From: a virus
Lineage: Duplodnaviria; Heunggongvirae; Uroviricota; Caudoviricetes
Length of the DNA: 64,000 nucleotides
Reading direction: 5' to 3' (one strand)
Virus record (IMG/VR): IMGVR_UViG_2529292906_000009
Span: 1-64,000 of that record
How positions within the stretch are numbered: the stretch's first letter is position 1; each line of letters starts with the position of its first letter. Both the position numbers and the translations under genes were made by a program. Positions 37,461 through 39,170 of the stretch are shown one piece after another. The notes beneath the pieces were generated by a model, which was not told where the DNA came from, did no database searches, and saw nothing but the letters and a program-made list of their open reading frames with translations.

Positions 37461-37745
37461 GTGGCAAGTATTGCAACAAAAGACAGCATTTGTTCGGGGC
37501 ACGGAGGATTCCCATCCAGGCCTCCCGTAGAGAGCGAACCACTACTTAAAGTCAACGGAGTCGAAGTGTTAGTTGATGGTAAGCAATATGCACAGCATAC
37601 CGATGGGAACAGCACGCACGGCGGGCAAGCTATATCAACCAGGGCATGGTTTACCGTCAACGGGAAAGGGATCGTATGCGTTGGTGATCCTGTTTCATGC
37701 GGCTCTACCGTAGCGTCCGGAGACGGCCTGGTTCAGGTAAGTTAG
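37461..37745 (+). CDS. PAAR-like spike-tip protein
   Basis: CSGHGG...HGG...PVSCGS pattern in 94 aa resembles PAAR-repeat proteins. Confidence 0.45.
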   Translation: MASIATKDSICSGHGGFPSRPPVESEPLLKVNGVEVLVDGKQYAQHTDGNSTHGGQAISTRAWFTVNGKGIVCVGDPVSCGSTVASGDGLVQVS

Positions 37746-37753
37746 GAGATATC

Positions 37754-38542
37754 ATGCTGGAAAAAGACTACCAGTTATCCGCATATAAAAAATTGGCCGC
37801 CGCCGGTGGGATGAAAACACCTGGTGCCATAACATCGGCACGAAACAGTGCTAACACAGCAAAACTGCTTGCAGAAGAATTGACCGGATTAATTCTGGAT
37901 ACAATTGTCTATCCCGACACTATTACCAGCTATGTTTCAACGATCAGAACAACCGCAACCGGTTTAACGAATATTGGAGGGCTGGCAACTCAGCACGCGG
38001 ACCTGTTGGCTGGTTATGCTGATCTGTCAATGCTCCTTCAACTCGATATTGGTTGGGATGTTTACTGTCGTGCTAATGAGCGAGAAGTTTCAGAACTGCC
38101 GATCTCTATTGCCATTGGTGATGTGACTATTACTAAATCGCTTGAGGACGCTGTAAACGCGCTTAATACATCAAGTTTAGTCGCTGCTATGGGGGAGATT
38201 AACCAGACCCTTAACACTGGCTCAGGAAGCTCGTCAGGCTCTGGTTCAGGCGGCGGCACTGCCACTCCCCCACCAGCACTAACAGAAGAGCAAATTGAAT
38301 CTCTGAAAGTAGCAACTGAACAGTTTGGGATTGTTTTCAACCAGACAACAGCACCCACAACTGCGTTACAACAGCAGTATGAACGAGCGAATGAAAGCGC
38401 CAACGTAGCCATAACTGCTTATAACCATGCTATCGGTATCGCGCTTGCGGAAGCATCAGCAAATAAGGCCAGCACAGCCAGCGCAGTTGCCGCTTTGGTT
38501 CCTGATTCTGTTCTTGATGAATTAAACAAAGCGGCACAGTAA
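37754..38542 (+). CDS. hypothetical protein with Gly/Ser-rich linker
   Basis: ORF downstream of the PAAR-like gene; start set at the internal Met. Confidence 0.4.
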   Translation: MLEKDYQLSAYKKLAAAGGMKTPGAITSARNSANTAKLLAEELTGLILDTIVYPDTITSYVSTIRTTATGLTNIGGLATQHADLLAGYADLSMLLQLDIGWDVYCRANEREVSELPISIAIGDVTITKSLEDAVNALNTSSLVAAMGEINQTLNTGSGSSSGSGSGGGTATPPPALTEEQIESLKVATEQFGIVFNQTTAPTTALQQQYERANESANVAITAYNHAIGIALAEASANKASTASAVAALVPDSVLDELNKAAQ

Positions 38543-38554
38543 CAAAGGACTTCA

Positions 38555-39004
38555 TTGATAATTTTTCTTCAGGAGGAAGACATGTCATTCTTTTCTACGT
38601 TAAAAACAGCTTTGTCTTTGAAGGAGAAACTTGCTGCTACTGGTGTTCTTGTTCTGATTTGCGCACTTGTTGGTGCTGGGTTTGCATGGGAACGTCATCA
38701 GCTAAAGCAAGCCATAGAGAAAATTGGCAGTCTTGATCAGGCTGTTAAGGAACGTGATAAGTCAATAATGGATCTTAACCAGACCATTGAGACGATGAAC
38801 AAAGCAGAGCAACATTTTCACAGCCAGGAAGTGAAAAATGAATCAGAACAAGCCAAGTATGCTGACAGGCAAATGGAACGAAAAGCTGAAGTTCAGAAAC
38901 AACTGGTTGCGGCGGGTAATGTTCGCCAGCGTATTCCTGCTGACACTCAGCGGTTGCTCCGGGAGTCGATCAGCGAATTTAACGCCGACGCCGACAAAGG
39001 TTAA
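38555..39004 (+). CDS. i-spanin (Rz-like): N-terminal TM helix plus periplasmic coiled coil
   Basis: TM segment ATGVLVLICALVGAGFAW followed by coiled coil; o-spanin frame embedded at the 3' end. Confidence 0.5.
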   Translation: MIIFLQEEDMSFFSTLKTALSLKEKLAATGVLVLICALVGAGFAWERHQLKQAIEKIGSLDQAVKERDKSIMDLNQTIETMNKAEQHFHSQEVKNESEQAKYADRQMERKAEVQKQLVAAGNVRQRIPADTQRLLRESISEFNADADKG

Positions 39005-39170
39005 CCACCCTGCCCCCAAAAGTGCATTTATGTGCAGGATGCCAGAGTTTAGCAGTGAATATTTTGATGATCTGCCAGCTTATATCCTCGATACAGAAAC
39101 GATGCTGATGGGGATTAACAGGAAGAATCGCAACGTTAATGATTACAACCGAGCTATTAGCGGTAACTAA
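38919..39170 (+). CDS. o-spanin (Rz1-like lipoprotein), overlapping and extending beyond the i-spanin
   Basis: Lipobox LTLSGC followed by Pro-rich segment, encoded in the +1 frame. Confidence 0.45.
   Translation: MFASVFLLTLSGCSGSRSANLTPTPTKVNHPAPKSAFMCRMPEFSSEYFDDLPAYILDTETMLMGINRKNRNVNDYNRAISGN

Follow-up and report, generated by a model that had tools for sequence, protein, structure and literature searches.

A P1-type gene cluster encoding a PAAR-repeat spike tip protein and a predicted overlapped spanin pair

Introduction

The spike tip protein of phage T4, gp5.4, has a metal site of three histidines and one cysteine that links hairpin tips (PMC12407873). In phage P1, UpfC was predicted by HHpred to be the spike tip, and an upfC deletion of this phage plates normally (Gonzales 2022, PMC9024508); cryo-EM of P1 places a monomeric UpfC on a trimeric gp5 needle (PMC12810830; bioRxiv 2025.07.21.665459). 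A second P1 protein, UpfB, was assigned to the spike tip in a 2026 cryo-EM study in PLoS Pathogens, in which three UpfB trimers account for a 'tripod' density (PMC12810830). This assignment was made by fitting an AlphaFold3 model into medium-resolution density (PMC12810830) and, on that modeling basis, it is probable but not proven that the tripod density is UpfB.

Among two-component spanins, the overlapped architecture is the commonest (228/528), and the P1 proteins PpfA and Mlp are entered in the same spanin table as 'ovl, OIS/OOS', an overlapped two-component pair (Kongari 2018, PMC6139136). The lysis function of P1 PpfA and Mlp has been called unverified, and the spread of the P1 lysis genes over several operons is a known atypical feature of this phage (PMC9025707). 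Here we describe a locus in a stretch of viral DNA of 64,000 nt (hereafter the window) where a first-pass annotation had reported a PAAR-like gene, a 262-aa protein and an overlapped spanin pair between hrdC and a plasmid origin.

Results

When we compared positions 37300-39600 of the window with phage records, we obtained 20 matches at 96-98% nucleotide identity, including P1, P7, SJ46, RCS47 and JL22, with SJ46 and other 'P1' isolates as the closest records. The annotated P1 record (NC_005856, 63.0-65.1 kb) corresponds to this region gene for gene, with the same order and the same neighbors. PpfA, Mlp and UpfA are 100% identical to their P1 counterparts, UpfC is 98% identical (2/94 residues differ) and UpfB is 92% identical. 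By sequence comparison, we identify the region as the upfC-upfB-ppfA-mlp-upfA cluster of a P1-type phage-plasmid, the genes and predicted roles of which are already published. All of the ORFs that the first-pass annotation described are present where it had placed them. The window is oriented in reverse relative to the P1 reference.

Alignment with P1 places dmt, hrdC and uhr on the minus strand to the left of the cassette, followed by the C1 operator Op68 and the Pdmt promoter, and it places oriR with its iterons, repA, incA and parA to the right. The C1 repressor operator (P1 Op68/Odmt) of the divergent uhr-hrdC-dmt operon lies on the minus strand at 37363..37379, homologous to its annotated position in P1. 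It reads ATTGCTCTAATAAATAT on that strand, with 0 differences from P1 inside the operator; the uhr/upfC intergenic region carries 11 changes relative to P1. This operator forms the left border of the cassette upstream region. Spike gene 5 occupies 27706-28335, which puts it 9 kb upstream of upfC; the 64,000-nt window contains none of lyz, lydA, lydB and lydD. The genes therefore do lie between hrdC and the plasmid origin, apart from lysis and baseplate genes, as had been noted at first pass, with uhr-hrdC-dmt on the left and oriR/repA on the right. The first-pass emphasis on this placement is overstated, as P1 is already known for the scattering of its lysis and tail genes.

The order PAAR gene, upfB, i-spanin gene and overlapped o-spanin gene is kept, with tight spacing, in six diverged P1-like lineages. 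In addition to the window/P1 lineage, these are represented by Cronobacter phage JK004 (58% UpfB identity), Logan contig L087 (47%), Salmonella contig L086 (45%), coliphage D6 (27%) and a further contig, L090. The o-spanin gene is in the +1 frame in 6/6 lineages, with an overlap of 164-233 bp, and the +1 overlap, the lipobox and the periplasmic Cys of the o-spanin are kept in all six, down to 28% identity. The 3' flank of the cassette changes: it consists of upfA and the replicon in P1 and JK004 and of the major capsid gene in D6 and L086, and D6 carries its partition genes on the other side of the cassette. In a more distant lineage (L088), three genes separate the PAAR gene from the UpfB-like gene, one of which is holin-like (phrog_3427, E 5e-10). 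For D6, JK004, L086, L087 and L090, annotation or gene calling has omitted the o-spanin gene or cut it short. The conservation of the cassette between changing flanks, and the frequency with which its o-spanin gene has been missed or mis-started, are new but minor observations.

The upfC gene (37461..37745, + strand) starts with GTG and encodes a 94-aa PAAR-repeat spike tip protein, the counterpart of T4 gp5.4, as indicated by PDB, PHROG and Pfam matches. UpfC differs by one substitution from chain A of PDB 9vyi, an entry named 'UpfC' (E 1.7e-60, 99% identical), and among other solved structures it matched T4 gp5.4 (E 8.6e-8) and the T6SS PAAR protein 4jiv (E 4e-4). In profile searches it matched PHROG 281 (PAAR motif) with an E-value of 2e-30, scored 26.4 bits against Pfam PAAR (PF05488), just below the 27-bit cut-off, and scored 36 bits against the NCBIfam T6SS PAAR model, far below the 124-bit cut-off. 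The proposal of a PAAR-like spike tip is backed by the matches to PHROG 281, T4 gp5.4, 4jiv and 9vyi_A together with the published cryo-EM, and PAAR similarity is supported in profile searches, even though the Pfam score falls short of its threshold. Residues H14, H46, H53, C73 and C80 do not vary among five lineages that are 57-78% identical, a pattern that fits the His3/Cys metal site of gp5.4, with either Cys as the candidate ligand.

The next gene, upfB (37754..38542, + strand), encodes a 262-aa all-helical protein, as judged from PHROG 1559 and a structural model, and this protein has been published as the trimeric 'tripod' of the spike tip. Its ATG is preceded by AGGAGA. The Gly/Ser linker attributed to this ORF was found as GSGSSSGSGSGGG at residues 156-168 (nt 38219-38257). 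UpfB matched PHROG 1559, a family of unknown function, over its full length (E 7e-138); it matched no Pfam or NCBIfam family and no enzymatic or toxin family. In an exhaustive profile search, the UpfB family comprised 89 clusters (50%-identity representatives) of single-domain proteins, nearly all of 245-265 aa, and in a word-indexed search UpfB relatives came from Enterobacteriaceae only, several of them on contigs of ~90 kb. UpfB homologues all begin with 'ML' at the 262-aa start. Because every homologue starts at this position, the 281-aa upfB start given in RefSeq, which lies inside upfC, is unlikely, and on sequence grounds the 262-aa start is better supported.

The AlphaFold2 model of UpfB is all-alpha (pLDDT 83), with a disordered Gly/Ser linker. 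A Foldseek comparison of this model with the PDB gave no match at E <= 0.001, and TM-scores were below 0.3, to generic helical bundles only. Sequence searches of the PDB with UpfB, PpfA and Mlp each returned only low-complexity or chance matches. All 42 nucleotide differences between upfB and its P1 counterpart fall within nt 38122-38439, and variation across the region is greatest in the C-terminal half of UpfB. As UpfB, like PpfA and Mlp, is unnamed in the main text of the 2022 virion study, it would appear not to have been reported there as a virion protein (Gonzales 2022, PMC9024508). An upfB deletion of P1 is viable and plates normally.

The ppfA gene (38582..39004, + strand; ribosome-binding site AGGAGG) encodes a 140-aa i-spanin, an assignment drawn from PHROG 89, hydropathy, AlphaFold2, identity to P1 and the listing in Kongari 2018. 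PpfA matched PHROG 89 'Rz-like spanin' (E 5e-25) and has a sole hydrophobic segment at residues 17-35 (nt 38630-38686; Kyte-Doolittle 2.35), an N-terminal transmembrane feature that is kept in five lineages. Its single-sequence AlphaFold2 model (pLDDT 80), which shows helicity only, contains helices at residues 4-116 and 120-138, with the short C-terminal helix coming after the invariant Pro119. PpfA has no periplasmic Cys. In a comparison of the PpfA profile with P2 LysB, we found only an 11-column P-D-x-x-R motif, which was not significant. The earlier designation of this protein as an Rz-like i-spanin agrees with the PHROG 89 match, the N-terminal transmembrane segment and the long helix.

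The mlp gene (38838..39170, + strand; ribosome-binding site AGGAAG) lies in the +1 frame of ppfA and encodes a 110-aa o-spanin precursor, as indicated by its lipobox, PHROG matches, LysC homology and the listing in Kongari 2018. It shares 167 bp with ppfA and continues 166 bp beyond the ppfA stop, where about 165 bp had been estimated. The Mlp lipobox is L-T-L-S-G-C, with LSGC encoded at nt 38946-38957; Cys40 is the predicted acylation acceptor, the +2 residue is Ser, which, not being Asp, is compatible with outer-membrane sorting, and there is one further periplasmic Cys (Cys66). The lipoprotein processing signal that had been reported is thus present, and its LSGC, Cys40 and +2 Ser are invariant across lineages. 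The accompanying description of the protein as Pro-rich stands only in moderate form, as Pro accounts for 6 of the 71 residues of the mature protein, and 4 of these lie within its first 25.

At 39 residues, the Mlp signal peptide is unusually long, and, counted from the first Mlp ATG, the lipobox Cys falls outside the interval of a PROSITE-style rule (residues 15-35). The published comment on P1 Mlp is 'Too long signal sequence', with a LipoP cleavage site at position 39 (Kongari 2018, PMC6139136). Two later starts were considered and rejected: Met8, which would satisfy the PROSITE rule, is not conserved, and a start at Met28 would lack a charged n-region. In the window, JK004, L087 and D6, the first o-spanin ATG has a ribosome-binding site in front of it, and a long basic n-region is found in the window, JK004, L086 and L087. 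Because the ribosome-binding site at the first ATG and the basic n-region are conserved, these comparisons support the view that the 39-residue signal peptide is real.

Mlp matched PHROG 30284 (E 6.5e-79) and PHROG 456 (E 2.7e-5). A profile built from five Mlp homologues aligned with P2 LysC in hhalign (probability 95%, E 3e-8), and the alignment spans the lipobox and a conserved C-x-M-P motif. Relative to P1, mlp in the window carries 2 synonymous changes only. The overlapping mlp ORF is full-length in 80/85 related loci; the IMG/VR scan made with the UpfB alignment, from which 80 loci were kept, yielded close P1 relatives throughout and is usable for intact-ORF counts only.

The reading of ppfA and mlp as an overlapped Rz/Rz1-like pair is borne out by the PHROG matches, the P2 LysC homology, the transmembrane segment, the lipobox and the listing in Kongari 2018, in which the P1 entries are identical to the PpfA and Mlp sequences of the window. 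Both proteins gave weak matches, below cut-offs, to the NCBIfam P2 LysB/LysC models. The suggestion that an overlapped architecture is itself notable does not hold, as this is the most frequent class.

In a published CRISPRi study, polar roadblocks on upfC, upfB or ppfA gave a plating efficiency of ~1 and a roadblock on mlp gave ~0.2; the value for lambda Rz in the same study was 5e-4. Because the roadblocks left plating at ~1 and ~0.2, one fitting reading is that plaques can form without PpfA and Mlp under CRISPRi conditions, and the P1 spanins may thus be dispensable there, as is the case with P2 lysB/lysC. Alternatively, internal promoters may bypass the CRISPRi block, or a substitute function may replace the spanins. 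Plating was near normal in CRISPRi knockdowns of all five cluster genes.

The last gene of the cluster, upfA (39182..39574, + strand), encodes a 130-aa protein that matched PHROG 1453 (E 8e-61) and gave no match in Pfam or NCBIfam. Outside the P1/JK004 lineage, upfA is not conserved alongside the cassette. An in-frame upfA deletion is viable, and in JL22 upfA is interrupted by a blaCTX-M-55 insertion. A terminator-like hairpin (39589..39609, + strand; a consensus match only), with a 9-bp stem, 5 G-C pairs and a T-rich tail, follows upfA and would close the operon before oriR.

We derived a P1 late-promoter pattern, AAGTNAYTN-N4-TANNNT, from the annotated promoters LPpro, LPlyz and LPdar. Allowing at most 1 mismatch, this pattern had no match within 36900-39600, and in the whole window it had 9 matches, with 7 expected by chance. 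In the Salmonella contig L086, a perfect P1 late promoter lies 51 nt ahead of the PAAR gene. A sigma-70 promoter scan of the region gave chance-level matches only, and one candidate at 37422-37450 was rejected as too near the upfC start to leave a leader. An Rfam scan of 36000-40500 gave no match. We infer both the co-transcription of the cluster genes and its timing.

Discussion

We consider it very probable that this cluster is an operon with two envelope-directed functions, one in entry, through the UpfC/UpfB tip, and one in exit, through the PpfA/Mlp spanin. For entry, the gp5 trimer, a beta-helical spike, would have its blunt end capped by a single UpfC monomer, a PAAR-repeat cone that holds a His3/Cys metal site, and UpfB, an elongated all-helical protein, would hang as three trimers on the UpfC/gp5 tip; neither protein is required for plaques on standard hosts. 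For exit, PpfA would sit in the inner membrane in type II topology and extend a long helix into the periplasm, and Mlp, whose translation starts in the +1 frame within the 3' end of ppfA, would be a lipoprotein of the outer membrane; the two would make up a two-component spanin of the overlapped kind, as in P2 LysB/LysC. After murein removal by the SAR endolysin Lyz, the PpfA/Mlp complex would fuse the inner and outer membranes and so complete lysis. We infer the spanin activity of the pair as well as the lipoylation and sorting of Mlp.

The probability that the +1-frame lipoprotein ORF is a chance, unexpressed reading frame is practically nil: gene callers did skip or truncate its counterparts in D6, JK004, L086, L087 and L090, but the ORF is full-length in 80/85 loci, its lipobox, +2 Ser, Cys66 and ribosome-binding site are conserved at 28-64% identity, it differs from P1 by 2 synonymous changes only and it matches P2 LysC, so that conservation effectively refutes this explanation. 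It is also quite improbable, in our judgment, that PpfA and Mlp merely resemble Rz/Rz1 and form an envelope module that the prophage expresses, for example for lysogenic conversion or superinfection exclusion, with transcription from sigma-70 promoters that lie within upfB and close to the plasmid replicon. Two such promoters (P1ppfA and P2ppfA) are predicted within upfB in the P1 record, although both failed our consensus scan, and the genes adjoin oriR/repA, although in D6 and L086 the cassette adjoins the capsid gene, not the replicon. The persistence of plaques in knockdowns and the lack of a canonical late promoter upstream of upfC are in line with a prophage role; P2 lysB/lysC, however, are likewise annotated as nonessential. 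Moreover, the homology of Mlp to P2 LysC, the matches of both proteins to spanin PHROGs, and the combination of a +1 overlap, an N-terminal transmembrane segment, a long helix and an outer-membrane sorting signal, all hallmarks of spanins, argue for a spanin.

A separate question is whether the linkage of tip and spanin genes has a functional meaning. Across six diverged lineages the four genes remain linked amid changing flanks, in the more distant lineage the PAAR and UpfB-like genes have a holin-like gene between them, and, within the region, the UpfB C-terminal half varies most. These observations would be expected if UpfB were a PAAR-borne cargo freed into the periplasm during entry, as with T6SS PAAR effectors, or if the membrane-fusing pair also served entry, yet we regard this explanation as very unlikely. 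One shared late operon explains the linkage without a common mechanism, and P2 also embeds lysis genes among tail genes. In addition, PpfA and Mlp are unnamed in the main text of the virion study (Gonzales 2022, PMC9024508), UpfB has no enzymatic or toxin family or fold match, and the upfB and upfC deletions plate normally. More generally, we think it unlikely that the PAAR tip, UpfB and spanin genes are a four-gene cassette that moves as a unit through functional coupling of tip and lysis; such coupling may involve UpfB as a PAAR-borne periplasmic cargo, or shared regulation that matters for both entry and exit.

As a discovery, the locus carries little weight, as P1 papers and databases already contain the genes, their predicted roles and the solved UpfC structure. 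Its practical value is that the o-spanin of this family is often missed or mis-started by gene callers and that the RefSeq upfB start looks wrong. P1 spanin function is an easily testable question, as knockdowns leave plaque formation unimpaired.

The predicted UpfC tip resembles T4 gp5.4 and T6SS PAAR proteins (4ku0, 5iv5, 4jiv) as a ~95-aa single-domain cone with a His3/Cys site that caps a trimeric beta-helical spike, and T4 gp5.4 and UpfC are alike in being dispensable for plaque formation. It differs from these systems in that upfC is 9 kb from the spike gene, not adjacent to it, and from T4 in that P1 gp5 has no lysozyme domain and the P1 tip bears the extra UpfB 'tripod' (PMC12810830).

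The predicted spanin pair shares with P2 LysB/LysC, the prototype of the overlapped spanin, an o-spanin gene that starts inside the 3' end of the i-spanin gene, in the +1 frame, and passes its stop, and the P2 genes are annotated as nonessential and embedded among morphogenesis and tail genes, like the P1 pair. The P1 pair departs from P2 in that PpfA has no significant LysB match and the Mlp signal peptide spans 39 residues, and in that its genes lie apart from those for holin and endolysin, whereas Y-K-lysA-lysB-lysC form one group in P2. Lambda Rz/Rz1 likewise combines a type II inner-membrane protein with an outer-membrane lipoprotein, the second gene being in the +1 frame, but the lambda Rz1 gene, unlike mlp, is fully embedded. 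In lambda, Cys residues are used in both Rz and Rz1, whereas a single periplasmic Cys is present in Mlp and none in PpfA. Finally, the lambda pair is needed for plaques (EOP 5e-4), in contrast to P1 ppfA, for which the corresponding value is ~1.

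Divergence and start site of upfB

Comparison of the window with P1 (NC_005856) showed that all 42 nucleotide differences in upfB fall within a single 318-bp stretch of its C-terminal half (38122-38439), where divergence reaches 13%. The first 368 bp of upfB, and the entire ppfA and upfA genes, are identical to those of P1. From this distribution, the divergent stretch looks like a recombination patch. Over the whole of upfB, pN/pS is 0.37 between the window and P1. We also observed that no other protein of the cluster varies as much as UpfB, which has 43 distinct sequences among 76 full-length copies at the 86 loci with a match.

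In the P1 RefSeq record, upfB encodes 281 aa from an ATG that lies within upfC (window 37697). The ATG of the 262-aa form (37754), which is accompanied by the ribosome-binding site AGGAGA, is the start in 14 of 14 aligned UpfB homologues. The profile of PHROG 1559 has a length of 263 positions. We propose, on the basis of these sequence comparisons, that the RefSeq start is probably wrong. A 116-aa antisense ORF within upfB (38062-38412, minus strand), whose sole support is that it is open, probably arises as a side effect of the Ala/Ser/Gly richness encoded on the opposite, coding strand.

Region upstream of upfC and candidate late promoters

The intergenic region between uhr, the minus-strand gene to the left, and upfC (37383-37448) spans 66 bp and has 11 differences relative to P1, and the adjoining C1 operator (37363-37379) is unchanged. 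No upfC promoter is annotated in P1, and we found none that was convincing in the window. The late-promoter pattern of P1 is matched exactly at 25244-25262 and 43514-43532 on the plus strand and at 43576-43594 on the minus strand; the window-wide count of matches is not above chance. In L086, a Salmonella P1-like contig, a perfect match to a P1-type late promoter (AAGTAACTT-TCCA-TACACT, ~3662-3680) precedes the PAAR gene by 51 nt, which suggests that the cassette of this lineage would be subject to Lpa-dependent late expression.

Spanin and tip genes in P1 relatives

The o-spanin gene is mis-started in phage D6 (L002 4670-5002, called as orf54), in Cronobacter phage JK004 (L003 4575-4907, called as gene_24) and in contig L090 (5051-5392, a 47-aa call), and is absent from the gene calls of L086 (5069-5407) and L087 (5099-5428). 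Both D6 spanins are labelled hypothetical proteins.

In L088, a contig of a more distant UpfB-bearing lineage, the segment at 2611-4747 holds, in this order, the PAAR gene, a gene for a phrog_3108 protein of 167 aa, an ORF of 43 aa, a gene for a 120-aa holin-like protein (phrog_3427), a UpfB-like gene and a 552-aa ORF, which we take from its size and position to be a putative capsid gene. Here, tip genes again flank a lysis gene, the holin-like phrog_3427, on both sides.

For P1 itself, the introduction of PMC9025707 describes ppfA as the o-spanin and mlp as the i-spanin. Because PpfA contains a transmembrane segment and Mlp a lipobox, the predicted protein features show these labels to be reversed.
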